Notes: generated from the letters alone by a model not told the origin. DNA of 61,465 nt, filler included, from Candidatus Desantisbacteria bacterium CG1_02_49_89 (GCA_001871075.1; 5 parts of 5 records of this genome joined end to end with filler, not necessarily neighbours in it), one strand, 5' to 3'. Positions 2,349-61,435 are shown, counted from the first letter of the whole stretch. A program made the numbers and translations.

Positions 2349-2400
2349 GTCCTTAAATTTGAAATTTAAAATTTGCAATTTGAAATTGTGCGTGGTTGGA

Positions 2401-4056
2401 TTATTCTTCCCCGTCCATTATTATAACTTCCACCCTGCGGTTCTGCGCCCGCCCTATCTTGGTATTGTTTACGGCGATCGGGTCTTTGGAGCCGCAGCCC
2501 TTCACGGTTATGCGCTCTTTTGAAACGCCTTTGTTAACAAGGTACTTGACAACCGATTCTCCCCTTTTTACCGAAAGCTTCAGGTTGTACTTACTGGGGC
2601 CAGTGGAATCAGAATGCCCTTCAAGGGATATTTTGTTCTCAACGAATATTTTTATTATTCCGGCAAGTTTATCCAGTGTCCTGCGCGCCGCAGGGGTAAG
2701 ATCCGCGTTCCCGAACTCAAAAAATATGTCCGCGCCCGTCTGGATGGGAAGCCTTGTTAAAGTTTCACCCCCGACAAAAACCTTCTCAGCCCTGGCACTC
2801 TCTAACTTGGCTTTTACGAGCTCCTCTATCCTCGCGTCCATCTCTTTAATGACCGATTCGGCTTTCAGCCTTGCTTGCTTCTCCTTCTCCGCGGAGGATT
2901 CTGCTTCCTTTCTCTTCTTCTCGGATTCATCCTGCATCTTTCTCAGCTTTTCCCCATCTGTTGTCTTCTTGGCAAGCTCAGCCTCCAGCTGCGCTATGCG
3001 CTTATCAAGCTCCTTAACAAGAGCTTCCGCTTTCAGTCTTGCTTCCTTCTCCTTTTTTACTTCTCCGGTTAATTTTACCTTTTCTGCTTCAGCCTGCTTG
3101 GCCTTTAATATAGCTGTTTCCTGATCTTTACTTTTGGCAGCCGAAGGTGGCACTGGCGAAGATGGCACAACGGCAGTTGTAACCGTCTTCTTTTCAGCCT
3201 CAAGTTTCGCCGCAGCGTCAGCGGTCACTTTTTTCTTTGCCTCTGCTTCCGCAGCTGCTTTCTTTTCAGCTTCGAGTTTTGCAGCGGCATCCTGAGCAGC
3301 CTTAAGTTCAGCCGCTTTCTTGGCTTCGGCTGCTGCATCCTGTGCCGCCTTCAATTCGGCGGCTTTCTTTGCCTCTGCTGCTGCTCCAGCTTTCGCAGCG
3401 GTTTCCTGCGCCGCTTTAAGCTCAGCAGCTTTCTTTTCAGCCTCAAGTTTCACCGCAGCGTCAGCGGTCACTTTTTTCTTTGCCTCTGCTTCCGCAGCTG
3501 CTTTCTTTTCAACTTCGAGTTTTGCAGCGGCATCCTGAGCAGCCTTAAGTTCAGCCGCTTTCTTGGCTTCGGCTTCCGCATCTGCTTTCTTTTTTGTTTC
3601 ATCTGTCGGAGGTACAACACTAGCCGGGGTAGAAGCAGGAACTGCCTCCTGTACCTCTACCTCCTGGCCAGAACCTGTTATAGTAACTATGATCGAATTG
3701 CCGGTCTTGCCCGCATTGATCTGCAGGGAAGAAACGTCCGAAGTCTCGATAAGAATACGCCCTATCATAACAGGTCTTACTGAAGCCTGTGTTACTGTTA
3801 TATACTTTAAAATGTCCTTCCCAACGTTCGTGGAACTTTCCTTGACCTTCAGGCCTCGGACCTCTATTAATACGCCGGAAGGAATCGTTGAAACTGACTG
3901 CTTGAACTGGGCGTCTCCGCTCATGACTATCTCAACAGTCGCGTTTCCGTCTGACTCGTTTGTCTTGACTTCCTTAAGCTCTGCGCAGTCAGCGGTTGCT
4001 GAGAAGAATGCTGCAGTCAGTGCCAGTAGTATTAAATGGACTATTCGCTTTTTCAT
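2401..4056 (-). CDS. OmpA-family peptidoglycan-binding protein with AMIN-like N-terminus and TolA-like Ala/Lys/Glu repeats
   Basis: Signal peptide; AEAKKAAELKAAQ repeats; C-terminal OmpA motifs FFEFG, EGHSDSTG, YNLKLS..RG.SV and GRAQNRRVEV. Confidence 0.85.
   Translation of the reverse strand: MKKRIVHLILLALTAAFFSATADCAELKEVKTNESDGNATVEIVMSGDAQFKQSVSTIPSGVLIEVRGLKVKESSTNVGKDILKYITVTQASVRPVMIGRILIETSDVSSLQINAGKTGNSIIVTITGSGQEVEVQEAVPASTPASVVPPTDETKKKADAEAEAKKAAELKAAQDAAAKLEVEKKAAAEAEAKKKVTADAAVKLEAEKKAAELKAAQETAAKAGAAAEAKKAAELKAAQDAAAEAKKAAELKAAQDAAAKLEAEKKAAAEAEAKKKVTADAAAKLEAEKKTVTTAVVPSSPVPPSAAKSKDQETAILKAKQAEAEKVKLTGEVKKEKEARLKAEALVKELDKRIAQLEAELAKKTTDGEKLRKMQDESEKKRKEAESSAEKEKQARLKAESVIKEMDARIEELVKAKLESARAEKVFVGGETLTRLPIQTGADIFFEFGNADLTPAARRTLDKLAGIIKIFVENKISLEGHSDSTGPSKYNLKLSVKRGESVVKYLVNKGVSKERITVKGCGSKDPIAVNNTKIGRAQNRRVEVIIMDGEE
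3188..3574. repeat. 144-nt internal direct repeat (3188-3331 and 3431-3574)
   Basis: The copies are 243 nt apart and differ at two positions by eye. Confidence 0.9.
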
Positions 4057-4109
4057 TTTGTTTATTGATATTAATTTATTAATTGATATTGAAAGTAATT
4101 TAGTATATT

Positions 4110-4137
4110 ATTATATATTAAATATAATAAAAGTCAA
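4110..4137 (-). promoter_or_regulatory. Sigma70-type promoter for the OmpA-family gene
   Basis: TTGACT-N16-TATAAT on the minus strand, about 55 nt upstream of the ATG. Confidence 0.6.
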
Positions 4138-4291
4138 GGAAAAAGAGCTTTTTTCATAATTCTACGCATTTTTATGTTTCTAATCCTTAAACTATGAGCT
4201 ACCATAGGCCCATTGCCTTAGCTCTGGGCCGAAGGTCCCTGCGTTACCCGCCAATATTCGTGGCGGGGCAGGGATATGCTATATACGGTTT

Positions 4292-5080
4292 TTAAGCCGT
4301 GGAAAGCTGCCCTGCCCTTTTCCACGCCGCCTTAACAGCCTTGTCCAATATGCTTCCCAGGCGGTATTTTTTTAAGACTTTAAGGGCTTCTGCCGTTGTA
4401 CCCTTCTTTGACGAAACCATATCGCGCAGTTCCGCAGGCTCTTTACCTGTTGTTTCCAGCAGCGCAACAGCACCCTTCGCGGTTTGGATCGCCAGATTCT
4501 TGCATGTTTGTTTGTCCAATCCAAGATCGCAGGCCGATCTGATCAGATGCCCGATCATCTCGAAGAAATAAGCCGGGCCGCTCCCGGAAAGCGCGGTCAC
4601 GGCATTAATATGTTTTTCAGCGACCGAAAAAACTTTCCCGGACCTGCGGAAAATTTCCTTCACTATAAACTCGTCTTTCCTGCTTGCACGCTTTCCCCTG
4701 CAGACCGCTGCCGCTCCCCGGCCGGCGATCAGGGCTATATTAGGCATAACCCTGACCACCCTTGCTTCACCTGCGGCTTTTTCAATAAAGCGGGTGCTTA
4801 TACCCGCAGCTATGGAAACAAACAGGTGCCTTGCCGTCACCGCGTCTTTTATGTTTACCAGCACTTCCTTCATCTCCTGCGGTTTTATCGCAAGTATCAC
4901 GATATTGCTTTTACTGACCAGTTCCAAGCTGTCTTTTGCAGGCGTTATCCCTGATCTTGAAGCGGCACGCTTTGCGGCAGGCCTTATGTCATAGCCCATG
5001 AGCGAAGATCCCTTCAGGCTTCTGCCGATAGCCATGCCCATTTTCCCCAGCCCTATTATACCGATCTTCCCCAGCTTCAT
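4292..5080 (-). CDS. proC: Pyrroline-5-carboxylate reductase
   Basis: GIIGLGKMG, AIKPQ, SIAAG, RVMPN, ALSGSGPAYF, VSSKKGTT. Start moved to ATG 5080 because the upstream extension is only a translated repeat. Confidence 0.95.
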   Translation of the reverse strand: MKLGKIGIIGLGKMGMAIGRSLKGSSLMGYDIRPAAKRAASRSGITPAKDSLELVSKSNIVILAIKPQEMKEVLVNIKDAVTARHLFVSIAAGISTRFIEKAAGEARVVRVMPNIALIAGRGAAAVCRGKRASRKDEFIVKEIFRRSGKVFSVAEKHINAVTALSGSGPAYFFEMIGHLIRSACDLGLDKQTCKNLAIQTAKGAVALLETTGKEPAELRDMVSSKKGTTAEALKVLKKYRLGSILDKAVKAAWKRAGQLSTA

Positions 5081-5093
5081 GTTAACCCCTATC

Positions 5094-5198
5094 GAATTAT
5101 GAATTATGAATGATGAGTTATGAATCAAAATCAAGGAGTTTTATTTAAATTCAATTCCATGTTGTTGACTCATAATTCATAACTCATAACTCATAATT
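5094..5198. repeat. ATGAATT-heptamer inverted-arm element, copy 1
   Basis: (GAATTAT)-like x4, a spacer, then (ATAATTC/ATAACTC) x4 inverted. Confidence 0.85.
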
Positions 5199-5214
5199 AA
5201 TTTCCTGTTTCTTT

Positions 5215-6360
5215 TTATATTATTTTGTTCCTAAGGAATGCCGGTATCTCCAGGTTGTTCACGGGATGCGGCCTTTTTTCCTCATCCAGCCTTGTCCCGA
5301 ATTTATCTATAAGGCTCCTGCGCTTGTATGCCGGTCTGTCATAATCCTGCGCGGCGGCATATGCCCCGGTGTCCACTTCCGCTCCCTGCTCCGTGTCCTG
5401 AGCGATCTTCTTTTCAAACCCGCTGGCAATTATCATGACCGTGGCCTCATCCCCCATGCTGTCATCCTCAACGGTCCCGAAAATGATATGCACGTCATCG
5501 CTTGCCATCTTCTGGATCAGGGTAGCTGCTTCCTGGACCTCGCCCATCTTAAGGTCCTTCCCCGAAATATTAAACAGGATCCTTTTCGCGCTATCTATGC
5601 AGCTTTCGTTCACAAGCGGGTTCGATATTGCCATTTTCACCGCGGCAACCGCCCTCCCCTCGCCGGACGCTGATCCCATTCCCATAAGCGTCTGCCCGGC
5701 GTCCCTCATTATGGTGCGCACGTCGGCAAAATCCAGGTTTATCAGGCCCGGGGTCGTGATCAGGTCAGAGATACCTTTGACCCCATGGTAAAGAACGTCA
5801 TCGGCCATCCTGAAGGCTTCGTTCAGTGAAGTCGCGTTATTGCACAGCCTCATCAGATTGTCGTTAGGGATCACTATCAGGGTGTCAACCTTGCCGTTGA
5901 GCTGCGCTATGCCCTGCTCTGCCTGCATGCGCCTTTTCCTGCCCTCGAACCCGAAGGGAAGCGTAACTATCGCAACAGTCAGTATTTCCATCTCCCTTGC
6001 AAGCTGGGCCACGACCGGGATCGCGCCTGTTCCTGTCCCGCCGCCCATCCCTGCCGTAAGGAAAACCATGTTTGAGCCGTCGATCGCCTGTTTTGCCAGG
6101 TCTATGTCCTCTTCAACGGCTTTCCTGCCCACATCCGGGTCTGAACCTGCGCCCAATCCCTCGGTAAGCTTGGACCCGATCTGTATCTTGTTGGTTGAAA
6201 GGGACGCTTTCAGGGCCTGGGCGTCAGTGTTTATGGCAATGAACTCGACGCCCCGGATCTCCGCCCTTATCATCCTGTCAACCGCGTTGCTGCCCCCGCC
6301 TCCTACCCCCACCACCTTCAGGTTCGCCCAGTAACCTCTTTCTTCCTCAAATCTGAACAT
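5215..6360 (-). CDS. ftsZ: Cell division protein FtsZ
   Basis: VGVGGGGSNAV, GMGGGTGTG, NLDFAD and C-terminal LEIPAFLR. Start ATG 6360 has an AGGAGG SD. Confidence 0.98.
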   Translation of the reverse strand: MFRFEEERGYWANLKVVGVGGGGSNAVDRMIRAEIRGVEFIAINTDAQALKASLSTNKIQIGSKLTEGLGAGSDPDVGRKAVEEDIDLAKQAIDGSNMVFLTAGMGGGTGTGAIPVVAQLAREMEILTVAIVTLPFGFEGRKRRMQAEQGIAQLNGKVDTLIVIPNDNLMRLCNNATSLNEAFRMADDVLYHGVKGISDLITTPGLINLDFADVRTIMRDAGQTLMGMGSASGEGRAVAAVKMAISNPLVNESCIDSAKRILFNISGKDLKMGEVQEAATLIQKMASDDVHIIFGTVEDDSMGDEATVMIIASGFEKKIAQDTEQGAEVDTGAYAAAQDYDRPAYKRRSLIDKFGTRLDEEKRPHPVNNLEIPAFLRNKII

Positions 6361-6384
6361 ATTCTCCCTCCTTTTTTGAAATTT

Positions 6385-6533
6385 GATTACGGTGATTTTC
6401 AACTGATGATTACGATGATTATTAAATAATGATTACGGTGATTATTAGAATAATGATCACAGCGATAAGTGCAACGATAGCAGTGATTTTAAAATTTATA
6501 ATCACTGTAATCATTCTTTAAATCACTGTAATC
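6385..6533. repeat. GATTACRGTGATT spaced array with inverted AATCACTGTAATC copies
   Basis: About five forward motifs at roughly 20-24-nt spacing, then two reverse-complement motifs. Confidence 0.85.
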
Positions 6534-6541
6534 GGTATTTA

Positions 6542-7762
6542 CTAAAAAAAATTCTGCCACCATTTCCTGAAGCCCTCGAAGACTCCGCCCTTGCCGAAAA
6601 TGGGAACGCCCCTCAGCTTTGACTGCATCAGAAGACCTGCTGCCACGGAAAAAGAAGGATCCGAAACCGCGGAACCTTCGGCTGCAGCTGTTATACCGCT
6701 TGCCTTCCCTATCCTCACGGGCATCCTCAGCATGTTCCCCGCGAGGTCAACAAGCCCGTCGGTATTCGCGACACCGCCTGTCAGCACAACACCGGCGGAA
6801 AGCATGTCCTCGTAACCAGTTTTCTTTATTTCCGCCCTTACCAGCTCGAATATCTCCTCGAGCCTTGCCTGTATGATCTCGCACAGCACCAGTTTTGAAA
6901 CCGTGTGGCCTCCCCTGCCGCCCAGGCCCGGAACATCCATCTCCCCCTCTTGTGCCATTGCCGATATCGCGCGCCCGTGTTCTTTTTTCAGTTTTTCCGC
7001 GACTTCGGGTGAACTGCGCACTCCCACGGCTATGTCTCCCGTAACCTGCTCGCCTCCCAGGCCCAGAACGCAGGTATGTATCACATAGCCTTTCACGAAA
7101 ACTGCTATGCTTGTCGTTCCGCCGCCCATATCAACCAGCGCGACCCCGCTGTTTATCTCGTCCTCGGCAAGCACTGCGAGGCTGGAAGCCAGAGGCCCCG
7201 GGACCGTGCTCCTGACCCTCAGGCCGGCCGAATTAATGCTTTTAATGATGTTCTGCATGGATGTTATCGCGCCCATGAAAAGCATGACCCTGATACCCAG
7301 GTTTTCCCCGATAAGGCCCAGAGGAGGTTCCTTCACGCCGTCGTGCCCGTCAACGATGTATTCCTGCGGCGATATGTAAAAGATCTCCTGGTCAAGCGGT
7401 ATGCTCAGCTCGCACGCCGCCTCTATAACGGCATTTATGTCCGCCTTCGTTATCTCTTTGTTTCCCCTGGAGATAGACCTGTGTCCGTCGCTGGGCATGC
7501 CCTTAAGGTAAATACCCCCGACGCTCGTAATGACATTTTTTATCCTCTGGCCGGACATCTTCTCTGCCTGCTCCACTGCGTCTTCGATCGCTCCAACGGT
7601 ATTATCAAGATGAATAATTACTCCCTTGCGCAGGCCCCCGGACGCCGGCCTTGAACCGTATCCCAGCACTTCCACCTCGCCTTCTTCGCTTACAGCGGAA
7701 ACAACCGCGCAGATCTTCGTCGTGCCGATATCAAGACTGCTCACGATCTCATCTTTAGCCAA
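6542..7762 (-). CDS. ftsA: Cell division protein FtsA
   Basis: LDIGTTKI, VDMGGGTT, GGEQVT.DI, VLTGGVA; lies upstream of ftsZ. Confidence 0.97.
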   Translation of the reverse strand: MAKDEIVSSLDIGTTKICAVVSAVSEEGEVEVLGYGSRPASGGLRKGVIIHLDNTVGAIEDAVEQAEKMSGQRIKNVITSVGGIYLKGMPSDGHRSISRGNKEITKADINAVIEAACELSIPLDQEIFYISPQEYIVDGHDGVKEPPLGLIGENLGIRVMLFMGAITSMQNIIKSINSAGLRVRSTVPGPLASSLAVLAEDEINSGVALVDMGGGTTSIAVFVKGYVIHTCVLGLGGEQVTGDIAVGVRSSPEVAEKLKKEHGRAISAMAQEGEMDVPGLGGRGGHTVSKLVLCEIIQARLEEIFELVRAEIKKTGYEDMLSAGVVLTGGVANTDGLVDLAGNMLRMPVRIGKASGITAAAEGSAVSDPSFSVAAGLLMQSKLRGVPIFGKGGVFEGFRKWWQNFF

Positions 7763-7939
7763 ATTCCCCTCCTTTTTTAAGATGACGATTACAGTGATTA
7801 TTTAAAAATGATTACGGTGATTATTAACTACTGACGATCTTTGCTTCGCAACATTCTTTGTGGGTCACGTCGATAAACGACGAATTACGGTGATTATACA
7901 ATGATTCTTTACTTCTCAGCATGCTTTATATTATTAAAA

Positions 7940-8716
7940 TCATGAGGAAGCTTTTGGTTTAAGGACCGCTTCACCGCCGAAACGCAGATCCACGTATTCT
8001 ATGCTCATCCCCCATGTTTTTATCTGCCCCATCAGCTTTTTTACCTTCCTGAGCTTGCCGGGAAAATCCCCGGTTCCCAGGTGGAATTCAATTCCGTCCC
8101 CGGTAACAAGAATAAGGTTCTGGGGATCCCTCATGTCAAGCTCAGAGATCTCTTTCACGGAAATACCCTCAGCTCCTGCCGCTTTTACGAAACCCGCGGC
8201 TTTTGGGAGCAATGCTTTCTGCTCATTGTCTGAAAGGCGGGCGGTTGTGACAAATGGTATGTCAAGTGAAAAGTTCCTGGACTGTCCTATCACGGACCCG
8301 CCCTCGTCCACATCGGAATATATATCGCTTCCCTCCTGCATGACCCTGAGGAAAGGCACCCTTTCGCCAGCTGTTATCACCAGTTTCCCCTCGCTGAAAT
8401 GCCTCTGTATCCTTACGTCTTTTATCTTGGGATGGCGAAGGAGTTCTTCCGCGATATCCTTCGGATCTATACGCAGCATGTTCATGCCGATACTTAGTTT
8501 CTTAAGCGCCTGGAACTGGCTGAAGTCTATCTCGCTCCTGCACTTGACCTCCATGCTTTTAAGCGGGTATGCCCGCCCGGCGAATTCAAAGAACTTAACA
8601 CCGAGTACTATTATAAGGAATACAGTGAGAAGCGCCAGCCATTCGCCGCGCGGGCCGTTGCCTTCTTTGTCCTTTCTTTTTTTTACGCCCTTGTTTTTTA
8701 AACGCGCGTCCCGCAT
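7940..8716 (-). CDS. ftsQ: Cell division protein FtsQ/DivIB
   Basis: Basic N-terminus, single TM helix, POTRA-like region, C-terminal YVDLRF; located between ddl and ftsA. Confidence 0.85.
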   Translation of the reverse strand: MRDARLKNKGVKKRKDKEGNGPRGEWLALLTVFLIIVLGVKFFEFAGRAYPLKSMEVKCRSEIDFSQFQALKKLSIGMNMLRIDPKDIAEELLRHPKIKDVRIQRHFSEGKLVITAGERVPFLRVMQEGSDIYSDVDEGGSVIGQSRNFSLDIPFVTTARLSDNEQKALLPKAAGFVKAAGAEGISVKEISELDMRDPQNLILVTGDGIEFHLGTGDFPGKLRKVKKLMGQIKTWGMSIEYVDLRFGGEAVLKPKASS

Positions 8717-9682
8717 TTATCTGCTCCTTGCCATCATGACGATCCTTGCCAGTAGTTCCTCGAACCCGATACCGGACGCTTTTGCCGATTCGGGGAAAAG
8801 CGAGAGTTCGGTCATGCCCGGAATCGTGTTAACTTCCAGGACATATATTCCGCTGCTGCCCATCCTGAAATCAACCCTTGAATAATCCCTGCAGCCCAGC
8901 GCCCTGTGGGCATGGAGGGCTAACTCCTGCACTTTCGCATAATCTCTTTCCCCGAGCGGCGCGGGAATAATATGCTCGCAGAATCCGGGGGTGTATTTTG
9001 CCTTAAAATCGTAGAAAGCCCTCCTGGGCTTCAGCTCTATGACCGCAAGCGCCTTGTTGCCCAGTATTCCCACAGAAAGCTCTTTCCCGCTTATATATTT
9101 TTCAACGATCACCTCGTTGCCGTATCTGAACGCGCTGCGCAAAATTGCTGCAAGTTCATTTTTGTTCCCGGCGATGCCTACCCCTATCGCCGACCCTTCC
9201 GAACTCGGTTTTACTACTACCGGAAAAGATAGTGAAACCGTGGACTGCCCGCCCTGCGCAAAGGCAGGGCGAGGTCTCGCCCCGATATTAATCGGGGCGG
9301 ATGGACCGTGGACTGTGGACTTATGCAGCACCTGGTACCGGGGAGTGGGGATGCCTTCGGAAACAAAGATCTTTTTTGCGAAAATTTTATCCATCGCAAG
9401 CGCTGAAGCAAGCACTCCCGAACCTGTATAAGGAATACCCATTCCCTCCAGGACCGCCTGTATGCCTCCGTCTTCACCGAACTTGCCGTGTATGCACAGG
9501 AATGCGACATCGAATTTTTTCCTGAAAAGCTCCTGGAAAGATCTTTTCCCTTTCAGGTCCAGGCAGGAAACCCTGAAACCCGCTTTTTTCAGCCCTTTCG
9601 CCACGGAAGATCCGCTCTTCAGCGAAATCGCCCTTTCACTCGACCATCCGCCCGAAAGCACCAGCACCCTTGTCTTCTTCAT
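8717..9682 (-). CDS. ddl: D-alanine--D-alanine ligase (with in-frame repeat insertion)
   Basis: GGWSSERAISLKSG, HGKFGEDG, VVKPSSEGS, YDFKAKY, LEVNTIPG. Confidence 0.96.
   Translation of the reverse strand: MKKTRVLVLSGGWSSERAISLKSGSSVAKGLKKAGFRVSCLDLKGKRSFQELFRKKFDVAFLCIHGKFGEDGGIQAVLEGMGIPYTGSGVLASALAMDKIFAKKIFVSEGIPTPRYQVLHKSTVHGPSAPINIGARPRPAFAQGGQSTVSLSFPVVVKPSSEGSAIGVGIAGNKNELAAILRSAFRYGNEVIVEKYISGKELSVGILGNKALAVIELKPRRAFYDFKAKYTPGFCEHIIPAPLGERDYAKVQELALHAHRALGCRDYSRVDFRMGSSGIYVLEVNTIPGMTELSLFPESAKASGIGFEELLARIVMMARSR
9247..9300 (-). repeat. 54-nt twin-hairpin element inside ddl; related copies at 28897-28949, 43147-43200 and 56138-56189
   Basis: CCGCCCCG-loop-CGGGGCGAGACCTCGCCC-loop-GGGCGGGC; the same architecture occurs at the other loci. 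Confidence 0.85.
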
Positions 9683-9691
9683 ACAACTCCT

Positions 9692-9803
9692 AATTATGAA
9701 TTATAAATTATGAATTATGAATCAACAACAAGGAGTTTTATCTTAATTCAGGGCAAAAGCCCTGATTCCTTCACTCATAATTCATAAATCATAATTCATA
9801 ATT
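9692..9803. repeat. ATGAATT-heptamer inverted-arm element, copy 2
   Basis: Same arms as copy 1 and a related spacer (CAAGGAGTTTTAT); extra hairpin TCAGGGC-AAAA-GCCCTGA at 9748-9765. Confidence 0.85.
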
Positions 9804-9807
9804 GAAT

Positions 9808-10725
9808 TTAAAATTCACCTAAAAGCTGCACTTCCAGCTCAAGCTTCACGCCGAAATGCTCGTAAACCCTTTTCTGCATTTTTTCAATAAGGCTCATGAC
9901 ATCAGCCGCACTGGCTTTCCCGCGGTTGAGGATGAAGTTCGCGTGTTTCTTCGAAACAACAGCCCCGCCGGCCTTCTCGCCCTTCAGCCCTGCCAGATCG
10001 ATCAGCAGGCCTGCAGAGCAACCGTTCGGGTTCTTGAAAATGCATCCCGCGGAAGGCTTATCCATAGGATGTATCTTTTTCCTTTTAGCCCACGCAGCCG
10101 ATATGCTCTTTTTCACCGCGTAAGGCGACGCTTTTTTAAGCCCTCCCAAAACCGCTCCGGTTACGATGCCTTTCATTTTCTTAAGACTGCTGTCCCTGTA
10201 TGAAAAAACCAGCCTGCCCGCGGGTATCCTTCTTGTCCTGCCGCTGTAATCCATGAAGTCCACTGATCTCACTGTTTTTCCTATTGCCATCCGCGGAGAA
10301 CCGGCATTTCCGATAAGCGCTCCTCCAAGGGTTCCCGGTATTCCTGCCATGAACTCAAGCCCGCTCAACCCCCTGCCTGCAAGAGCGCTCAGAAGCCCGG
10401 ACACTGAAATTGAAGCGCCCACTTCAACCGTGCTTCCCCTGATCTTCACCTGGTCCAGCGCCTTTCCGGCCTTTACAACAACGCCCCTTATGCCTTTGTC
10501 TCCGACCAGTATGTTCGTGCCGCTGCCGGCTATGTACAGCGGCAGTCCGGATCTTTTCGCGGCACTGAATATCCTGCGCAGCTCGTTAATATCTTCGGCT
10601 ATGATGAACACGTCTGCCGGCCCGCCTATCCTGAAGGACGTATGCTTTGACATAGGCTCGTTAAAAAGCACCCGGCTTTTTTTCAGGATCTTCCCGATAT
10701 CTTTAAAAACAAATTGCTTTTTCAT
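9808..10725 (-). CDS. murB: UDP-N-acetylenolpyruvoylglucosamine reductase
   Basis: HTSFRIGGPA, GSGTNILV, GLEFMAGIPGTLGG, PSAGCIFKNP, HANFI, LELEV. Confidence 0.97.
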   Translation of the reverse strand: MKKQFVFKDIGKILKKSRVLFNEPMSKHTSFRIGGPADVFIIAEDINELRRIFSAAKRSGLPLYIAGSGTNILVGDKGIRGVVVKAGKALDQVKIRGSTVEVGASISVSGLLSALAGRGLSGLEFMAGIPGTLGGALIGNAGSPRMAIGKTVRSVDFMDYSGRTRRIPAGRLVFSYRDSSLKKMKGIVTGAVLGGLKKASPYAVKKSISAAWAKRKKIHPMDKPSAGCIFKNPNGCSAGLLIDLAGLKGEKAGGAVVSKKHANFILNRGKASAADVMSLIEKMQKRVYEHFGVKLELEVQLLGEF

Positions 10726-10847
10726 TTTTCACCAAATAATAAAAATTACCACGGAGGCACTGTGATCATAGCTTTTACTTGACACTTGATACTTGACTCT
10801 TGATACTGAAACTCTGACACGCTGATACGCTGACACGTTGACACGCC

Positions 10848-12251
10848 TTACTTCTCTTTTAGCTTTCTAAGGATCTCTTCCCCTATCGTGTAAACGTCTC
10901 CGGCTCCCATCGTAAGCACAAGGTCGCCCGGCTTTGCTATCCCCGCAATGTAAGATGCCGCCTCTCCCTTGTCCTCAATGTATCTTTTTTCCCCGCAGGT
11001 CCTGATCCCCGAAAGTATCACGCTTTGGTCCACGCCCTTTATTTCCTTTTCGCCGGCGCTGTAGATCTTTGTCAGGATGACTATGTCGGTGCGCGAAAGC
11101 GACCTGCCCAGTTCCCTGCCCAGGAATCTTGTCCTGCTGTACCGGTGCGGCTGGAACACGACTATCATCCTTTTTCTCCCCAGCCTCCTGGCAACCCGCA
11201 TTGTCGCGTCTATCTCGCTGGGATGGTGCGCGTAATCGTCGATCACCAGCACCCCTTTTTCTTCGCCCTTGACCTCTATCCTGCGCTTCGCGCTCCTGAA
11301 ATCCGCGAGCGCTTCGCATGCCTTCGAAAAATCAACGCCAGCCTGCAGAGCGGCGCAGGCAGCGGCCAGGGCGTTTGAAACGTTATGCATTCCGGGCACA
11401 CCCAGCCTTATCCTGCCAAGCCTTCTGCCTTCACCCGTGACCTCGAATTCGCTGCCCCAGAGGTCCAGCCTGATCCCGGACGCGCAAAAATCAGCTTTCC
11501 CGGAGGTGCTATACGTAAGCACGCCGCACTTCAGCAGTCTTTTCCTTTTTATTATCTCCGAAACGTTCCTGTCGTCGGAATTCAGTATCATTATCCCGCC
11601 GGCTGGGGTCAGGCTGGCGAAATCCCAGAAAGCCTTCTTAAGATTTCGTAGATTCCCGTAATGATCCAGGTGTTCTTCTTCGATATTCGTAACGATACCT
11701 ATGTCCGGCGGCAGCTTCAGGAACGAACCGTCGCTTTCATCCGCTTCGGCAACAAAATATTCCCCTTTGCCCAGGCCGGCATTGACCCCGCCCAGCACCC
11801 CCACGTAACCCCCCACCGCGAAATCCGGTTCGAATCCCGCCCTGTGCAGTATATAAGCGATCATGGAGGTGGTTGTTGTTTTTCCGTGCGTGCCTGTTAT
11901 CACTATCCTCTTCCTGTCTTTCATGAGGGAAAAAAGCATGTCCGCCCGCCGTATGACGGGGATACCTTTTTCCTTTGCCTCTTTCAGCTCCGGGTTTGAA
12001 GGGGAAACCGCTGACGACACGACAAGAAGGCGCGCGTCCGCAACGTTCTGCGCCCGGTGGCCGGTGAAGATCTTTGCTCCTTTTTCCGCAAGCGTCCGTG
12101 TTGCCGCGGACTCTTTTATGTCAGACCCGCTCACGCTCTCGCCTTTTGCAAGCAGCATGAGCGCGAGACCGCTCATCCCCACACCGCCTATGCCCACGAA
12201 ATGCACAGCTTTATTCTCAGCCACGGATCTCCACGGATTTTTACTCTGCAA
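10848..12251 (-). CDS. murC: UDP-N-acetylmuramate--L-alanine ligase
   Basis: HFVGIGGVGMSG, GTHGKTTTT, EADESDGSF, DDYAHHP, FQPHRYSRT. True start may be GTG 12224. Confidence 0.97.
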   Translation of the reverse strand: MQSKNPWRSVAENKAVHFVGIGGVGMSGLALMLLAKGESVSGSDIKESAATRTLAEKGAKIFTGHRAQNVADARLLVVSSAVSPSNPELKEAKEKGIPVIRRADMLFSLMKDRKRIVITGTHGKTTTTSMIAYILHRAGFEPDFAVGGYVGVLGGVNAGLGKGEYFVAEADESDGSFLKLPPDIGIVTNIEEEHLDHYGNLRNLKKAFWDFASLTPAGGIMILNSDDRNVSEIIKRKRLLKCGVLTYSTSGKADFCASGIRLDLWGSEFEVTGEGRRLGRIRLGVPGMHNVSNALAAACAALQAGVDFSKACEALADFRSAKRRIEVKGEEKGVLVIDDYAHHPSEIDATMRVARRLGRKRMIVVFQPHRYSRTRFLGRELGRSLSRTDIVILTKIYSAGEKEIKGVDQSVILSGIRTCGEKRYIEDKGEAASYIAGIAKPGDLVLTMGAGDVYTIGEEILRKLKEK

Positions 12252-12319
12252 ACTCTGTAAACTTTATAAACTTTGTAAACTGCATCAGCAACCACGGATT
12301 AACACGGATTCCCACGGAT

Positions 12320-13456: not shown

Positions 13457-13482
13457 TTTAACCCCGATTTACCGCTGAAATC

Positions 13483-13580
13483 AATTATGAGTTATGAATT
13501 ATGAGTTATGAGTGAAGGAATTTTATTTAAATGAAAATCCATGCCGTTGATTCATAATTCATCATTCATAATTCATAATT
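13483..13580. repeat. ATGAATT-heptamer inverted-arm element, copy 3 (spacer opposite in orientation to copy 2)
   Basis: Arms as in copies 1 and 2; spacer GTGAAGGAAT is the reverse complement of ATTCCTTCAC in copy 2. Confidence 0.85.
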
Positions 13581-13589
13581 AGAAATTTT

Positions 13590-14966: not shown

Positions 14967-15044
14967 TTTTTTAGAAATCAGATTAAGATTAAGAACTTTT
15001 TAACCACACGATTACACAGATTTCCACGAGATGACGGTTTGACC

Positions 15045-15110
15045 GTCATTGCGAGCGGAGCGAAGCAATCTTGTATTGGATTGCTTCGTCATTTCATTCC
15101 TCGCAATGAC
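15045..15110. repeat. GTCATTGCGAG...CTCGCAATGAC palindromic element; other copies at 45738-45804 and (partial) 53818-53887
   Basis: 11-nt terminal inverted repeats with an internal CGAAGCAATC/GATTGCTTCG stem. Confidence 0.9.
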
Positions 15111-15224
15111 ATTTCTTGTGGAATTCGTCAGTCTTTCGATATTACCCACAAAGAATGTTGCGAAGCAAACAATCGCGTGAAATCTCGTGGTTATATGTTT
15201 TGCATTAATCTCAATCTGCCTTTT

Positions 15225-17733: not shown

Positions 17734-17764
17734 GTTTTAACTTTCAACCTTTAACTTTTAACCT

Positions 17765-41502: not shown

Positions 41503-41598
41503 TTACAGTGATTTTGAGAAGATGATTACAATGATTATTCAAATTTAAATAATCACCGTAATCTCAGTTATAATCACCGTAATCCCAAAAGGTATTTT

Positions 41599-45146: not shown

Positions 45147-45211
45147 AAATGCAAAATTAAAGGAATGGTTTTCAATTTTGAATTTTACATTTTGCATTTT
45201 GCATTGGTGAA

Positions 45212-45679: not shown

Positions 45680-45876
45680 CCACTGAAGCCACTGAAAAAG
45701 TTTTTAACCACGAGATTTCACAGATTTCTATCTGGCAGTCATTGCGAGCGAAAGCGAAGCAATCTTGTATTAGATTGCTTCGTCGCTACGCTTCTCGCAA
45801 TGACATATCGTGTGAAAATCTAGTGTAATCGTGTGGTTTGAATTATCTCAGTGCCCTCTGTGGCAGAATGAAGTAT

Positions 45877-50115: not shown

Positions 50116-50228
50116 CAGCAGTTTATAGAGTTTATAAAGTTTACACAGTTTACAAAGGTCAAAAGTAACTCAGGGCTTCTCGAAGACCCGCCAATTTTTA
50201 AGGAGGGAGTCCTGATACTGCGGAACAT

Positions 50229-52714: not shown

Positions 52715-52972
52715 ATGACGCAATATAAAAAACTTTTGGCTAAGATTTTACAGGGCAGTTCCGATGCAAATATTGCTTTCACAGAAATACGTCAGTTGCT
52801 AATCAGTCTGGATTTTGATGAGCGCATTCGTGGCAGTCATCACATTTTTACAAAAGATGATATTGTGGAGATTTTGAATTTACAGACTAAAGGTGCAAAA
52901 GCAAAGCCATATCAGGTTAAGCAGATTCGAAATATAATCTTGAAGTATAAACTCGGAGGTGGAGATGTTTAA
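52715..52972 (+). CDS. hicA: HicA-family toxin
   Basis: GSHHIF, LNLQ...KAKPYQVKQ; overlaps hicB. Confidence 0.88.
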   Translation: MTQYKKLLAKILQGSSDANIAFTEIRQLLISLDFDERIRGSHHIFTKDDIVEILNLQTKGAKAKPYQVKQIRNIILKYKLGGGDV

Positions 52973-53174
52973 GTATGAAGTAATTATCTATTGGAGCGAT
53001 GAGGACAAAGCGTTTATCGCTGATGTTCCCGAATTGCCCGGCTGTATGGCTGACGGAAAAACTTATCAGGAAGCCCTGGATAACGCAAAGGGGGTAATCC
53101 ATGAGTGGATCGAAACCGCCAAAGAATTGGGGAGGGCAATTCCTGAACCAAAAGGGCGGTTGGTATTTGCATAA
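52965..53174 (+). CDS. hicB: HicB-family antitoxin (short form)
   Basis: ADVPELPGCMADG.T..EAL......I..W...IPEP. Confidence 0.9.
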   Translation: MFKYEVIIYWSDEDKAFIADVPELPGCMADGKTYQEALDNAKGVIHEWIETAKELGRAIPEPKGRLVFA

Positions 53175-53798: not shown

Positions 53799-53887
53799 CA
53801 GATCTTTACATTTGGGCTTTGCGAGGAGTGTTAACGACGAAGCAATCTCGACCTAAAAATCGAGATTGCCACGCTCCCTTTGGTCGC

Positions 53888-53987
53888 NNNNNNNNNNNNN
53901 NNNNNNNNNNNNNNNNNNNNNNNNNNNNNNNTTAATTAATTAANNNNNNNNNNNNNNNNNNNNNNNNNNNNNNNNNNNNNNNNNNNN
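53888..53987. other. Artificial contig spacer
   Basis: N-run with central TTAATTAATTAA. Confidence 0.99.
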
Positions 53988-56812: not shown

Positions 56813-57003
56813 GTGGTTCACCCTCAAATAATAAATTTACCACGGAGGCACGGAGACACAGAGAAGTATAACTCAAAGGTCAAAGGTCAAATCGCAAAAG
56901 TCAAATGTGAAATTCCTTAATCCAGGATCTAGGATCCAGGATCTAGGATCTAAATTGTGCTGACCACTCGCCACTGACAACTATTTTCACAGTTCGGTCA
57001 TTG

Positions 57004-58194: not shown

Positions 58195-58370
58195 TTAAAT
58201 CTCCAAGCAAATATTAACCACACGATTGCACAAGATTAGCCCCTGCAGCCCGCCAATAATCGTGGCGGGCTACGGCACGGATTTTAAACTTTGTAAACTT
58301 CATAAACTCTGTAAACTATGTCGAAGATCCCTCTGGGACTTTCGTAAGAAAGTAGAGGGATAAACTGTGT

Positions 58371-60188
58371 TTATCCGCTTTCGCTTTGGAACCTGTATCT
58401 AAACCGCCCTGCCGGAGCAACGTCCCCCGAAACATAGAAATCCATTATGTCACCGGGCTTTTGTATGTTATCCGCCCACTTGAAATCAAAAATTAAAGGG
58501 TCTGTGGCCAACCCTAATATTTTCCTCGGAACGGCAAGATGCATCTTGTTCCCCTGAAATTTGAAATTGACGGTTCCTGCCTTTTTCCAGTTCCAGCCCT
58601 TTTCGGATTTTTCCAGGACTGCGTTATTACCGTCCAGAGGCAACCTATTAATTATAAAATCATAACCTTCCCACCCCTTGCCCTGAACCTGTCGAAGACC
58701 TCGCCCTGAAGTTTGGGCGGGTCGAAGATCTCGCCCATCATTCTGGGTGGAAGCCTGCGAATGGTTTTTCAACTTTGAGCTTTCAGCTTTCAGCTTTGAG
58801 CTTATCAGCAGCCACATCCAGTTATTGCCCGGAGGTGAAATATCGTTTTTGGTTTCAGCGTAAAAATAAATGTTTTCTTTGTCAAAGGAAACTTTAGCGC
58901 GAAGTATGTTATTCCTCAGCGTGTCGTTCTTATACCGCAGGTTCCCGTACCCGGAATGGTCCCTGCGGACATTTCCCATATCGTGGTTTAAAAACTCCGG
59001 CTGGACCGCGTCCCACTGGTCGAAGACCCCCTTGATATCAATTGTCTTCGGCTTCTCAGGAACAGGCAGATCTTGGACGCCCTTGAATTTCCGCACGCCC
59101 GAAACCATCTGGTAATAATAATTATCCGCGTGCCCGCCCTTCATCGGTTCTGTGTCCCTGCTGTATTCCTGGGAGAACTGGTCCATGAACTGCACGGGCC
59201 TGTCAGGTATTACTTCCTCCTTCCCCCTGCCTGCCGTCCACTCGTTCCACCCGGTCACAAACAGGAATTCGGGGTCAAGCTCTAAAGCGCGGCTCCACTG
59301 TTCCTCAGCGTTCATCCCGTAATTTATTATTTCCGGGTAAGGAGGCAATAAGGGCGCGTGCTCTTTACCGTGGTGGAACGACCTACCCCTGCAATCGCCC
59401 CTGCTCATGGACGAGGCGTTTGTAGGCACTTTTATTGTAAGGTTCTGCGCAACTGAAACAACCACCTGCTCCGCAACCTTCTCGTTATCCTCGTAGGAAT
59501 AGGGCTGCGGGTACGCGGCTTCCCAGTGCCAGGCATTGTGCGTATTCTGCATAACAAATGGCCAGTATGCTTTTCTTAGAGTGAAGAAATCCCTGAGTTC
59601 CTGTGTTACTTCTTCAGGCGGGGCAAGCAGGAGCGGCTTGCCTTTCCATTGGAACCACAGGTCTTTGTATAACCCCGGCTTGTAAAGGTTGTTGTATATT
59701 TCAAGCGCTGTTTCCCCCGCCTTTGTGTTTGTCATGAAAGCGATCTGCGGCGTGCATTCGCCTGCCTTTCGAACATCCTCAAAAACTTCGCACAGCTTCA
59801 TATAAGCTTCCGGATAAGTAACGGCGTTCGTGGTGTCGAAGATCAGGGTGTCTATACCCGCGTCAGCCAGAAGATGACAGTGCTTCCTGAGCACCCAGGG
59901 GTCATCAACCAGGTAATAGCCAAAAAGCGGTTCTCCCCAGTGATGGGATGACCAGGGGGGTCCCCAGATGGATTCATCCCCGAGGGGATTTTCCCTGTGC
60001 TCAAGCAGGATCTTTGTTACGTCATACGGGCCGTTCGCGCCTGCTTCTTTCAAATGCGTGAGAAAATAAAATATGCCCGTGAATTTTTCCTTCCTGAGAA
60101 CGCGGGCTTCGTTCTGCACAGGCACTGCGCGGCCAAGCCCGTCAACAGCCGGCCAGGCAACTCCGGGAACCGCTGAAAACTGCTTCAT
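58371..60188 (-). CDS. Putative glycoside hydrolase (GH99/GH71-like) with repeat-derived insertion
   Basis: WGEP.FGYY, AGID..IFD.TN, GWNEW, EYSRD.EP. Confidence 0.65.
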   Translation of the reverse strand: MKQFSAVPGVAWPAVDGLGRAVPVQNEARVLRKEKFTGIFYFLTHLKEAGANGPYDVTKILLEHRENPLGDESIWGPPWSSHHWGEPLFGYYLVDDPWVLRKHCHLLADAGIDTLIFDTTNAVTYPEAYMKLCEVFEDVRKAGECTPQIAFMTNTKAGETALEIYNNLYKPGLYKDLWFQWKGKPLLLAPPEEVTQELRDFFTLRKAYWPFVMQNTHNAWHWEAAYPQPYSYEDNEKVAEQVVVSVAQNLTIKVPTNASSMSRGDCRGRSFHHGKEHAPLLPPYPEIINYGMNAEEQWSRALELDPEFLFVTGWNEWTAGRGKEEVIPDRPVQFMDQFSQEYSRDTEPMKGGHADNYYYQMVSGVRKFKGVQDLPVPEKPKTIDIKGVFDQWDAVQPEFLNHDMGNVRRDHSGYGNLRYKNDTLRNNILRAKVSFDKENIYFYAETKNDISPPGNNWMWLLISSKLKAESSKLKNHSQASTQNDGRDLRPAQTSGRGLRQVQGKGWEGYDFIINRLPLDGNNAVLEKSEKGWNWKKAGTVNFKFQGNKMHLAVPRKILGLATDPLIFDFKWADNIQKPGDIMDFYVSGDVAPAGRFRYRFQSESG

Positions 60189-60583
60189 ACAAACCTCCAT
60201 GAAATCGCATATGGCTTATGGCGTATAGCATACGCAATCAATACTTCTCTTCCTTGAACCTCGGAACCACGGTCGCCCCTGCGGCGACCCGCCGAAGGGG
60301 CGGGAACTTCGGAACTGTTTTTTTGCTGACTGCTGGACACTGACTATTGGCCACTGAATTAAACAGAACCGCCCCTGCCTATAAAGAACCTTTTGCTTTT
60401 AAGAACGTTTCTTCCTTTGAACCTTTTAATTAAATGAACCCGTCCCTGCCTACAAGGCAGACCCCCGTATAGGTCTGCGAACAGACCTGGGGGTCCAAGT
60501 TCTTTTTTTTATCCCCAGAAGCACAGAGTAAATTATCCAGAATTCGCCTTGTTTTTCAATATCTTTATAAATAGTGCCTGTCC

Positions 60584-61033
60584 CTATTTGCTCGGTTCCA
60601 GCAATTCAAATCCTGTCCCGGCATCTTTTTTCCGCAATGCTTTTGTTTCAAGTATTTCAAATATTATTACTTCTCCTATATGCCAAACCTTTACTCCGCG
60701 CCGGATGCACCCGGTGCACGTTTTATCTTTTCTGCCGCAGGCAGCGTGCAGGTGGAGGATCGGTTTGCCGCTTTCGTCCGGAAAAATTGTACCGGTGCCC
60801 GTAATTTCATAAACATCGTCCAATATAAGCTCCATGGGCTCGATCACGGCGCTCCTTCCCGTTCTTGGGCCCACGACCAGCCTGCTGTCCTTATCTGCTC
60901 CTCCGAGAATCATAACCCCCGCGGCCCTGATATTTTCTTTTATTGCCAGCTCTTCAATACACTTGTGTATAATTTCGCCGTCTTCCAGCCTTACAATAAA
61001 TATTCTTCCTGTCTTTCCCTGCGAATACTTCAC
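60584..61033 (-). CDS. PPC/DUF296-domain protein
   Basis: RLEDGE, E..GTGTI, LHLH. Confidence 0.85.
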   Translation of the reverse strand: MKYSQGKTGRIFIVRLEDGEIIHKCIEELAIKENIRAAGVMILGGADKDSRLVVGPRTGRSAVIEPMELILDDVYEITGTGTIFPDESGKPILHLHAACGRKDKTCTGCIRRGVKVWHIGEVIIFEILETKALRKKDAGTGFELLEPSK

Positions 61034-61225
61034 TTTAACTCGCTCCTTTCGTAAACCCCCGCGTTTACGTTAGCCCCCGCGTCTAGCCCCGACCGCAGAG
61101 TCATTAGCTTTGTTCTGACTCGCAGGTCCCTGTGTTAAGCCCCGGTTTATCGGGGCTACAGGGATCGGGGCTGTAGGGACAGCTAAAAATTGGGTATTAT
61201 CCCAATTTTTATGATATGTCACATG

Positions 61226-61435
61226 TCAAGACCAGGCACCTTTTTTATCCACTGAGGACGACAGGCTGGAAGCTGAAAGCTGCTTTGAACCAGGCACGTT
61301 GACCGGCAGGGCCAGGATAATATCGTCTATCGCTGCAGGGCAGTATATTTCCCGGATCTCTTCAAGTGTCTGGGCGCGCGCCGCGCAGGCGCCCAGTATC
61401 GCCAACGCAAAAACCAGCATAATTTTCTTGCGCAT
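61226..61435 (-). CDS. Short signal-peptide ORF, probably a truncated exported protein
   Basis: MRKK plus hydrophobic core plus ARA cleavage motif and AAGGA SD; ends shortly after a heptamer tract. Confidence 0.4.
   Translation of the reverse strand: MRKKIMLVFALAILGACAARAQTLEEIREIYCPAAIDDIILALPVNVPGSKQLSASSLSSSVDKKGAWS

Follow-up and report, generated by a model that had tools for sequence, protein, structure and literature searches.

Dispersed short-unit tandem arrays in a Desantisbacteria genome: hairpin, solo and in-frame forms, and their possible kinship with PF05635 and PF13366 gene cassettes

Introduction

Short arrays of tandem heptamer repeats have been known in cyanobacteria for decades, and the short tandemly repeated repetitive (STRR) heptamers of heterocystous cyanobacteria were reportedly described by Mazel et al. 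in 1990. Palindromic elements that lie in frame are known as Rickettsia palindromic elements. Here we describe tandem arrays in a stretch of 61,465 nucleotides, filler included, from the uncultured groundwater bacterium Candidatus Desantisbacteria bacterium CG1_02_49_89 (GCA_001871075.1), which we refer to as the window. The arrays had been pointed out in an original prediction, made from the sequence alone, as traces of a lineage-specific non-autonomous mobile or repeat-generating system. The class itself is known (STRR, long simple-sequence repeats (SSRs) and TAACTGA repeats); what is new is the host, together with the added features described below.

According to the accessible text of one survey, a genome of the marine Beggiatoaceae holds 169 TAACTGA sets, mostly just upstream of start codons (MacGregor, 2015; PMC4679880). 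The survey also covers cyanobacteria and Bacteroidetes, and binding of S1, Csp or Csr proteins was proposed; in that text no mechanism of spread was evident to the author (PMC4679880). Long SSRs were treated by Mrazek et al. (2007), as cited there (PMC4679880). Coxiella's intervening sequence (IVS) has, in the excerpts available, a 28-bp terminal stem that RNase III cuts in its middle in vitro, and two or three tandem GACAGAT heptamers, strain-dependent in number, ahead of the S23p open reading frame (ORF) (Warrier et al., 2016; PMC4990558). Excerpts of two further papers state that PF05635 proteins resemble Avd of diversity-generating retroelements (DGRs), Xcc0516 being an assembly of five four-helix bundles (PMC10053308), and that Avd forms a pentameric barrel of positive charge and acts together with a reverse transcriptase (PMC6182149). 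In our literature search no paper was found that gives short heptamer arrays a mechanism or function, that reports a role of PF05635 or PF13366 proteins in repeat binding or mobility, or that, beyond the Coxiella case, links dispersed heptamer arrays to these two families.

We suggest, with a probability of roughly 0.55, that the arrays of the window are dispersed, gene-less repeat modules, IVS-like and non-autonomous relatives of cassettes that carry PF05635 or PF13366 genes, and that they are co-transcribed with the operons in which they lie. They come in three classes: inverted-arm hairpins, solo arrays that are unstructured as RNA, and in-frame arrays within genes.

Abundance and Regularities of the Arrays

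Tandem Repeats Finder (TRF) returned 102 rows for the window, and overlaps were removed before arrays were counted. Forty-six arrays have at least three copies, compared with a mean of 2.14 in 50 block-wise dinucleotide shuffles. For period-7 arrays of at least three copies the corresponding numbers are 29 and 0.18, so that the predicted enrichment is real, and a TRF array was found at, or within a few bases of, every site named in the prediction. The density of period-7 arrays is 47 per 100 kb, versus 4.0 per 100 kb in the division and cell wall (dcw) loci of other bacteria (160 loci, 2.39 Mb). Among 43 arrays the period is 7 nt in 29, 8 nt in six and 9 nt in five. The copy number is narrow (median 4.4, range 3.3-6.3 for heptamers), and the 61 kb hold at least 12 unit families.

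The arrays cover 17% of the non-coding but only 0.8% of the coding bases, and they lie 0-28 nt from a stop or a start codon, in both orientations relative to transcription. By the TRF criteria an array is present in 20 of the 40 spacers of at least 30 nt, and related word families occur in about six more. The statement that most spacers carry them was therefore generous. The small AT-rich island was predicted to lack arrays, and it does so apart from a single weak AT-rich 9-mer row at 34900; by our estimate this absence is not significant, because the island has only about 0.65 kb of spacer.

The control loci are uneven, five contigs (L127, L137, L138, L081 and L096) holding like arrays with other units. 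These are unrelated metagenome contigs, and the same design is found around the cassette genes of other phyla described below, so the system cannot be called lineage-specific. One of the five, L137, is rich in heptamer arrays and has at 2195-2237 a perfect array of 6.1 AAACCCT units; this unit is the plant-type telomere repeat, which is probably a coincidence.

One explanation is that the arrays arose purely by slippage of local heptamers in situ, neither being copied from site to site nor having any connection with cassettes. Imperfect units speak for it, and four arrays (at 17460, 21042, 22826 and 56920) are cleaner at 14 nt, with a shift identity of 0.94-1.00 versus 0.68-0.88 at 7 nt, which fits later slippage in two-unit steps. 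Clear two-unit alternation is seen in about five to eight arrays only; a looser criterion for a 14-nt superperiod flagged 15 of the 29 arrays and was dropped, being trivially met by a single variant unit. Slippage does not, however, yield recurring unit families, and here 45 of the 406 pairs of heptamer arrays lie within one mismatch of each other, compared with 7.9 (maximum 17) for random heptamers; among control arrays of different loci the fraction is 4.1%. Nor does it yield inverted partners. Ungapped inverted repeats with arms of at least 20 nt are found at 13 loci, against a mean of 1.05 and a maximum of 3 in 40 shuffles, and arms of at least 24 nt at six loci, against 0.05. The view that independent slippage alone does not produce such a pattern is therefore upheld, and we regard slippage as the sole origin as quite improbable.

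Inverted-Arm Hairpin Elements

About 10 spacers contain paired arrays, and at least 12 arrays or groups of arrays stand alone; the prediction that many arrays occur as inverted pairs therefore describes one part of them. Folded as RNA in the sense of the genes, eight of the 10 paired spacers gave z-scores of -4.4 or lower, with none of 200 shuffles folding as well, and weaker folds were obtained for 13457-13589 (z -2.52) and 45120-45211 (z -1.27). The elements with arms of short units are the following.

5094 to 5196, minus strand: ATTATGA-armed hairpin in the ftsZ-proC spacer, arms 5094-5125 and 5168-5196; TRF period 7, 4.6 and 4.1 copies; fold of 5084-5214 at -36.8 kcal/mol, z -5.41.
9692 to 9803, minus strand: ATTATGA-armed hairpin in the murB-ddl spacer, starting 4 nt past the murB stop and ending 9 nt ahead of the ddl start; TRF period 7, 4.4 and 4.1 copies; the best fold of all, 9683-9807, at -47.1 kcal/mol, z -8.64, 0 of 200 shuffles as good.
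13483 to 13580, minus strand: ATTATGA-armed hairpin in the murD-ftsW spacer, found by TRF; its fold (z -2.52) is the weakest of the three copies.
30156 to 30269, minus strand: ACTTGAY-armed hairpin in the interval from a nucleotidyltransferase gene to a GFO-family oxidoreductase gene; TRF period 7, 4.4 and 3.4 copies; inverted arms of 27 nt; fold z -4.48.
31364 to 31418, minus strand: CAACTSA-type hairpin, inverted arms of 20 nt; fold z -4.78.
38807 to 38904, plus strand: CTRGATC / ATCYAGG hairpin from TRF, directly past the rplU stop, ahead of rpmA; -49.1 kcal/mol when folded, z -5.42.
45127 to 45205, plus strand: AATTAAA / ATTTTGC pair from TRF; a weak hairpin, its z of -1.27 lying within what shuffles give. 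The final codons of dxs and its stop come from the left array, and its protein ends ...QLKIKN*.

Homology among the ATTATGA elements at 5094, 9692 and 13483 extends over both arms and the loop, about 105 nt in all, with a mean column identity of 75%, and they are therefore copies of one element. Whole elements with homologous loops are not what slippage yields. No transposase gene was found beside any of the three copies.

A second family has the same arm-loop-arm design as the heptamer hairpins, with 23-nt tandem units that bear GATTACNGTGATT words. A further element has inverted arms around a structured core.

6384 to 6541, minus strand: hairpin with arms of 23-nt tandem units bearing GATTACNGTGATT words, in the ftsA-ftsZ spacer; TRF period 23, 3.2 copies; fold z -6.56.
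39178 to 39268 and 41503 to 41598: related hairpins of 23-nt GATTACNGTGATT units, z -6.36 and z -4.91.
7763 to 7939, 26500 to 26545 and 38390 to 38480: direct copies of the 23-nt GATTACNGTGATT units.
14998 to 15200, no strand assigned: inverted CACGATT / CACAGATT arms around a structured core of roughly 140 nt, with a CCAC..CAC..CAC match at 15004-15027; a second copy lies at 45700-45837.

A GC-rich hairpin module of the form GTCATTGCGAGCG...GAAGCAATC... was also noted in or beside CAC-unit arms, at 15040-15130, 45740-45810 and 53830-53880.

A terminator role for the hairpin elements was considered and rejected, T-tails being lacking; the sole terminator-like hairpin in the scan, at 2342-2327, follows the ompA-like gene. 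A promoter role was rejected as well, since the promoter-like matches within arrays owe their spacer lengths to the 7-nt period, and most of them point away from genes.

Solo Arrays

Solo arrays commonly occur as two or three different ones adjacent to each other, as at 10777 and 10806, in 12222-12346, at 40310 and 40356, at 50083 and 50120, and in 56841-56952.

10777 to 10846, minus strand: six ACTTGAY and five CTGACACG units, adjacent, directly past the murC stop; TRF; unstructured, fold z +0.47.
40310 to 40346: CGTGTCA array as at 10777-10846, past the obg stop (sense-strand sequences).
12222 to 12346, minus strand: spacer filled from the ftsW stop to the murC start by CACGGAT (2 copies), AAACTYTGT (4.3), CACGGATT (2.8) and TTTAACT (4); the last array supplies the C-terminus of FtsW, which ends ...SLKLKVKS*.
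17735 to 17770, minus strand: TTTTAAC / TTTCAAC array that fills the murE-murF junction; TRF period 7, 5.1 copies; minimum free energy 0.
56841 to 56952, minus strand: CACGGAGR (3 copies), TCAAAGG (2.7) and ATCYAGG (4.7) arrays from TRF.
2355 to 2387, minus strand: 4.7 copies of AAATTTG (TRF) between the ompA-like stop and the terminator hairpin at 2342-2327 (terminator scan).
26545 to 26633, minus strand: GTCAAGT (4.4 copies) and TTTCGTG (3.9) between two rmlD-like genes; TRF; fold z -0.40.
58285 to 58321, minus strand: 4.1 copies of TAAACTYTG (TRF) with one CACGGATT word ahead, the same adjacency as at 12230.
50083 to 50157, plus strand: AGTGTCC array, which forms the C-terminus of a BcrAD/BadFG-type ATPase gene, followed by 4.2 copies of AGTTTAYAR; TRF.

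All eight solo tracts that were folded have z between -1.5 and +2.2, and two of them, 12252-12346 (z +1.66) and 19274-19340 (z +2.16), are less structured than nearly all shuffles; for the tract in 12222-12346, 196 of 200 shuffles fold at least as well.

It could be that the arrays are selected as cis-acting RNA, the hairpins serving as intercistronic processing or stabilising stems and the solo arrays as platforms on which a single-strand RNA-binding protein of the S1, Csp or Csr type would tune how the following gene is translated, with dispersal as a by-product. That arrays end 4-28 nt from start codons or directly past stops, and that solo arrays are as structured as shuffles or less, would fit, as would the proposal made for TAACTGA, the accessible text of which notes the binding of CspB to heptamer repeats with one protein per heptamer (MacGregor, 2015; PMC4679880). 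However, more than 12 unrelated unit sequences would demand many binding specificities, the arrays occur in both orientations relative to transcription, within coding sequence and downstream of last genes, and no Rfam family matched the arrays in a scan of the window. Such a role is, in our judgement, an unlikely explanation of the system as a whole.

Arrays Within Genes and Their Turnover

Eight arrays are internal to coding sequences, and five form the C-termini of genes (ftsW, sua5, rpiB, dxs and the BcrAD-type ATPase gene). The internal sites include a signal peptide and the genes listed here.

17460 to 17531, minus strand: in-frame GTTGAAM (4.4 copies), then ACTTACG / ACGACGC, in murF; translation LVRRASCVVSRKFKNFQRSTFNVQP.
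20972 to 21073, minus strand: in-frame CGTCGTR (4.4 copies), a 39-nt linker and TACTTGA (4.6 copies), in a GT2 glycosyltransferase gene.
22826 to 22855, minus strand: in-frame GTCGKAC array in a GT1 glycosyltransferase gene; TRF period 7 and 14; translation NVRRTTPDVRL.
52204 to 52238, plus strand: in-frame array of 4.4 copies of AGTTTACA in recN, at the place of a gap relative to D. radiodurans RecN.
58767 to 58809, minus strand: in-frame array of six TTTCAGC copies in a gene for a hypothetical protein of 609 amino acids; TRF; translation LLISSKLKAESSKLK.

All eight internal arrays are open in the frame of the gene, and four of these have no open frame at all on the antisense strand; among the 28 intergenic arrays, nine have no open sense frame. 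Such a pattern would be expected from purifying selection on the places and ways in which arrays survive. The three internal arrays that were checked against solved structures all lie at insertion points relative to homologues. The murF array adds 24 residues where the alignment with E. coli MurF (1gg4) has a 15-residue gap, and the GT2 array encodes 33 residues (50-82) that are unaligned to 5mlz and 9hwj, where the homologues have five residues.

Sister lineages were compared at the protein level, using alignments of MurF (13 of 120 listed matches) and RecN (9 of 120). The MurF relative P0122 (85% identity) has the same loop insert as the window, P0123 (79%) has a longer, different repeat-like insert in this loop, and P0125 (48%) has SSKLKAQSSKLK there, which is the peptide pattern of the TTTCAGC array family of the window. 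In a second MurF loop P0122 has three DxVR units, P0123 one and the window none, a series that local slippage could well have given. The array segment of RecN is limited to the window's own cluster (100% representative) and absent from the other eight aligned relatives, and five Desantisbacteria-like relatives have a 19-column gap at this place. The loops thus differ both in presence or absence and in unit number, and array content at permissive loops turns over between close lineages. In-frame arrays are in this way a route for essential enzymes such as MurF and RecN to acquire loop insertions and new C-termini.

Confirmation in Other Sequencing Runs

Twenty-four public groundwater or aquifer runs contain a 10-kb test stretch, none of those listed being recorded as RNA, and contigs of four of them (X9, X12, X20 and X24) were compared with positions 1-19665 of the window. 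Gapless contigs cross arrays in X20 record 10 (1543-3208, spanning the AAATTTG array), X9 record 26 (5169-7816), X12 record 5 (11468-12854, with the filled ftsW-murC spacer), X20 record 16 (17684-19473, with the murE-murF junction) and X24 record 23 (17461-18430, with the murF array), and the contigs that span arrays in the four runs are 100% identical to the window. Protein clusters identical or 99% identical to MurF, RecN and FtsZ of the window are also found in independent sources.

An assembly or binning artefact of a repeat-rich metagenome might have been suspected, as the window concatenates five contigs and contig ends lie near repeats, the array at 27629-27661 being 40 nt from one of them. 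The gapless, fully identical contigs of the four other runs and the near-identical protein clusters from independent sources make this explanation vanishingly improbable.

The majority of the other contigs in the four runs terminate at arrays, and bins that bear arrays have a summed depth 10-40 times that of neighbouring gene bins, a sum over all contigs and organisms that gives no copy number. Between 48 and 114 contig records per run fit two places of the stretch. Contig ends and raised depth at the arrays are the behaviour of multi-copy repeats. In the element at 14998-15200, positions 15079-15111 rank among the deepest of the stretch, and many different loose ends fall at 15079 and 15111 in the four runs.

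No unit-number variant and no multi-base insertion or deletion was seen at the arrays in the contigs of the four runs, although contigs drop rare variants. Together with the narrow copy number this is unlike highly slippery tracts and tells further against slippage as the sole origin. When it comes to contingency loci, their hallmark of unit-number variation within the population was likewise not seen in these contigs, from which low-frequency variants may escape.

Arrays Beside PF05635 and PF13366 Genes in Other Genomes

The original prediction had pointed to similar tracts beside small four-helix-bundle (PF05635) and GxxExxY (PF13366) genes in other genomes, and this is borne out. All seven PF05635 matches in three genomes have short-unit arrays alongside, mostly as inverted pairs. 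A further set of 29 loci consists of the best match per genome in 29 of the 61 genomes searched, and in 22 of these loci an array lies within 250 nt, on both sides in nine and on one side in 13. The periods of the flanking arrays are 7 nt in 25, 8 nt in five and 9 nt in eight, with a median of 4.1 copies, and arrays are 6.8 times denser near the PF05635 gene than at a greater distance. In 13 of 28 loci the flank upstream of the gene is the inverted complement of the one downstream, compared with none of 20 control pairs 1 kb away. A cassette protein matches PDB 2rld, an entry with five chains.

For PF13366, five loci were obtained from eight matches, two pairs of matches being halves of one gene and one weak match being dropped, and all five have inverted arms of two to three units of 8-10 nt. 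The design ACCAC..CAC..CAC is found in 10 of 34 PF13366 loci. Among 61 genomes of one phylum (G005-G065), 38 have PF05635 genes, with up to 11 matches per genome, and 24 have PF13366 genes; both families are multi-copy where present. In the 160 control dcw loci, a search for ORFs bracketed by arrays gave three candidates, none with a Pfam match.

Gene and arm vary together. Pairs of loci with matching arms have a mean protein identity of 64.5% (n = 15), versus 33.6% for the rest (n = 391), a difference not reached in any of 1000 label permutations, and two loci of different genomes, L163 and L165, have common AAGGATG arms at 57% identity. Since related genomes share whole loci, this co-variation points to co-inheritance and not to recognition of the arms by the protein.

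The link to cassette genes is thus real elsewhere and only indirect for the window, where the tie is one of design and not of sequence. The most persuasive single cases are three resemblances at the sequence level. Left arms like the 9-mer array at 50120 are found in the PF05635 cassettes L178, L183 and L184, which share with it an AAGGTCWAAA end (29.5 bits only); both arms of L168 are matched by the ACACAGATTT array at 27629; and the arms of L171 and L213 look like the CACGGAGR array at 56840, the segment 56840-56859 having the ACCAC..CAC..CAC design of PF13366 arms. This design is also seen in the arrays at 12292 and 15004, the motif count being within the shuffle range.

A Model for the Arrays and the Points Against It

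The model that we prefer, gene-less relatives of the PF05635 and PF13366 cassettes, can be laid out as follows. A module would be an arm of about four to five imperfect units of 7-9 nt. Two inverted arms with a short loop would make up a hairpin element, and a single arm, or two different arms placed side by side, an unstructured tract. The modules sit at the exact gene boundaries of operons and would be transcribed with them. Elsewhere, arms of the same build bracket a PF05635 (Avd/S23p-like) or PF13366 gene, as in an ORF-bearing 23S rRNA IVS. In the mRNA the hairpins are predicted to form stems of 25-35 bp, and by analogy with the IVS stem these are probably cut by RNase III; such cutting would separate the cistrons, so that the element does no harm to those that flank it. 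Solo arms may be tolerated as unstructured spacers or, where they are open in frame, as loop insertions and C-terminal tails. Spread would take place by copying, either by transposition-like insertion or by recombination between like arrays, and local slippage in 7- or 14-nt steps may remodel the arrays afterwards. As for the predicted mobile or repeat-generating system, recurring unit families, three elements homologous from end to end, contig breaks and loop turnover speak for it in part, its restriction to one lineage was wrong, and its putative enzyme has no gene in the window.

Several observations weigh against this model. Neither gene family was found in the window, as had been predicted: among 1068 six-frame segments no PF05635 gene or fragment (36-protein profile, best E 4.7) and no PF13366 gene or fragment (30-protein profile, best E 6.4) was detected. 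Seventeen of 42 window units lie within one mismatch of an arm unit, and letter-shuffled arm units give a mean of 17. BLAST pairs of at least 30 bits between 27 array segments and the cassette flanks number two in 17.3 kb of PF05635 flanks and three in 16.4 kb of PF13366 flanks; since the controls gave, per 10 kb, 0.06 for dcw loci and 0.13-0.39 for more distant parts of the same cassette loci, this is an excess of only about 5-30 times, on tiny counts. The window has four occurrences of the CCAC..CAC..CAC motif, whereas its shuffles have 1.06 on average and 5 at most. On the side of the cassettes, seven of the 29 PF05635 loci have no array within 250 nt, the strict CACRRA-pair motif is present in only six of 29 PF13366 loci (in three of them on both sides) versus none of 52 control segments, and the co-variation of gene and arm may reflect nothing more than common descent of entire loci in related genomes. 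No target-site duplication can be defined, the flanks of the ATTATGA alignment showing no clear one and the element borders being ambiguous because the arm ends are AT-rich repeats. The variant positions in the arms of hairpins are not compensatory when the arms at 9692 and 9775 are compared, which tells equally against selected cis-acting RNA. The constancy of unit number in the four runs belongs here as well.

It is tempting to speculate that the number of copies is close to five because a pentameric Avd-like protein binds the arrays. A wider reading would take arrays of about four to five heptamer units as the nucleic-acid sites to which pentameric Avd-like proteins are cognate, each protomer having one unit. 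Along with cassettes of GxxExxY nucleases they would form a selfish family that crosses phyla and is insulated from host transcripts by stems cleavable by RNase III, the 23S IVS being one special case. The orphan arrays of the window would then be non-autonomous copies kept or moved in trans, and the STRR of cyanobacteria would have the same origin. We hold this combination of claims to be doubtful.

Whatever their origin, the arrays show the heptamer class at very high density in a candidate phylum and in the three forms of hairpin, solo and in-frame array. The arm design is tied to two families of small genes, the pentameric Avd of DGRs being a homologue of one of them, and a repeat puzzle that has long been descriptive is now linked to a gene cassette that can be tested.

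Genomic Context

The window consists of five contigs joined end to end by four pairs of N runs with linkers, so it is a pseudomolecule and the gene order across these points is not real.

19666 to 19765, 27701 to 27800, 33594 to 33693 and 53888 to 53987: pairs of N runs around TTAATTAA (TTAA) linkers.

Pfam scans identified a dcw cluster with proC, ftsZ, ftsA, ftsQ, ddl, murB, murC, ftsW, murD, mraY, murF and murE. Apart from this cluster they show a block of polysaccharide genes, more housekeeping operons and a small AT-rich methylase island. The best named relative is Candidatus Desantisbacteria bacterium CG1_02_38_46 (66% identity for FtsZ and 57% for RecN). The genomes G001-G005 contain no close relative of the host (FtsZ identity 47-55%), contigs of other genomes searched with FtsW gave distant homologues only (identity at most 46%), and metagenome contigs searched with the alignment of the MurF clade gave homologues of at most 43% among the matches listed, with generic patterns.

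Some other features were noted. Rfam identifies a group II intron D1-D4-4 (RF02003) at 71-209 on the minus strand, a match of 66.3 bits along the full length of the model; it lies where the window begins, upstream of the DUF362 gene. The OmpA-family gene has two copies of a 48-nt unit at 3287-3384 (82% matches). In the second rmlD-like gene 3.2 copies of a 27-nt unit lie at 26989-27075 (95% matches, score 158); the Pfam match of the protein is split in two stretches, and the repeat resembles an in-frame insertion of nine-residue repeats of a different kind. The interval between recN and a CsgG-like gene contains at 52715-53174, plus strand, overlapping small ORFs of 85 and 71 amino acids that by eye are like a HicA/HicB-type toxin-antitoxin pair, and an ORF of 68 amino acids at the start of the third contig (27810-28016, plus strand) resembles by eye an IS transposase at its C-terminal end. 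Another dispersed repeat family is made up of small GC-rich hairpins, of the form CCCGCCAATAWTCGTGGCGGG, which lie in the spacers at 4230-4275 and 58240-58265.

Comparison with Known Systems

Miniature inverted-repeat transposable elements (MITEs), as generally described, and Rickettsia palindromic elements resemble the window elements in being small, non-coding and multi-copy, with inverted ends, and in being tolerated between genes or in frame. Several homologous copies with terminal inverted repeats, as expected of MITEs, are represented by the three ATTATGA elements. The arms of the window elements are, however, internally tandem-repetitive, no target duplication can be defined and no cognate transposase is known. 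The tandem repeats of Borgs also lie both between genes and in frame, where they give disordered protein segments, but in the accessible text they are perfect, have longer units and are of local origin, while the units of the window are short and imperfect, recur across sites and are often inverted (PMC9879509).

The Coxiella IVS shares with the window elements inverted arms that form a stem (about 28 bp in the IVS), tandem heptamers in the arm region and a position that in the window, too, would be embedded in a host transcript, as far as the available excerpts of its description go (PMC4990558). Long stems of inverted arms are indicated for the window by the 13 inverted loci and the eight strong folds. 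The IVS stem is a substrate of RNase III in vitro (PMC4990558), whereas the stems of the window are known from predicted folds. The IVS carries an ORF and the window elements carry none, so that the PF05635 gene typical of such cassettes is missing from them. An ORF-bearing IVS is expected in helix 25 or 45 of 23S rRNA, whereas the window elements lie between protein genes, Rfam detecting no rRNA in the window, and their size is 70-110 nt compared with 428 nt for the Coxiella IVS. The PF05635 and PF13366 cassettes (36 and 34 loci) are like the window in the period spectrum and copy number of their arrays, but neither of the two proteins is encoded in the window.

The closest likeness in form is to STRR, long SSRs and TAACTGA repeats, which are few-copy tandem direct repeats of 7 nt, mostly intergenic and often a few bases from a start codon, sporadic across phyla and of unexplained origin. 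Tandem direct units of 5-11 nt, with 7 nt as the commonest period and several copies, are the rule in the window too, and the loci are many, dispersed, mostly intergenic and far above chance. STRR and TAACTGA repeats have one to three characteristic units per genome, in contrast to the 12 or more unit families seen here, and the window adds 8-, 9- and 23-nt periods of the same design as well as in-frame arrays within essential genes. Inverted pairs fill about 10 of its spacers, compared with one inverted set among about 170 in the accessible account of the TAACTGA repeats of BOGUAY. The host, finally, belongs to a candidate phylum (Desantisbacteria-like), unlike the hosts of STRR and TAACTGA repeats.

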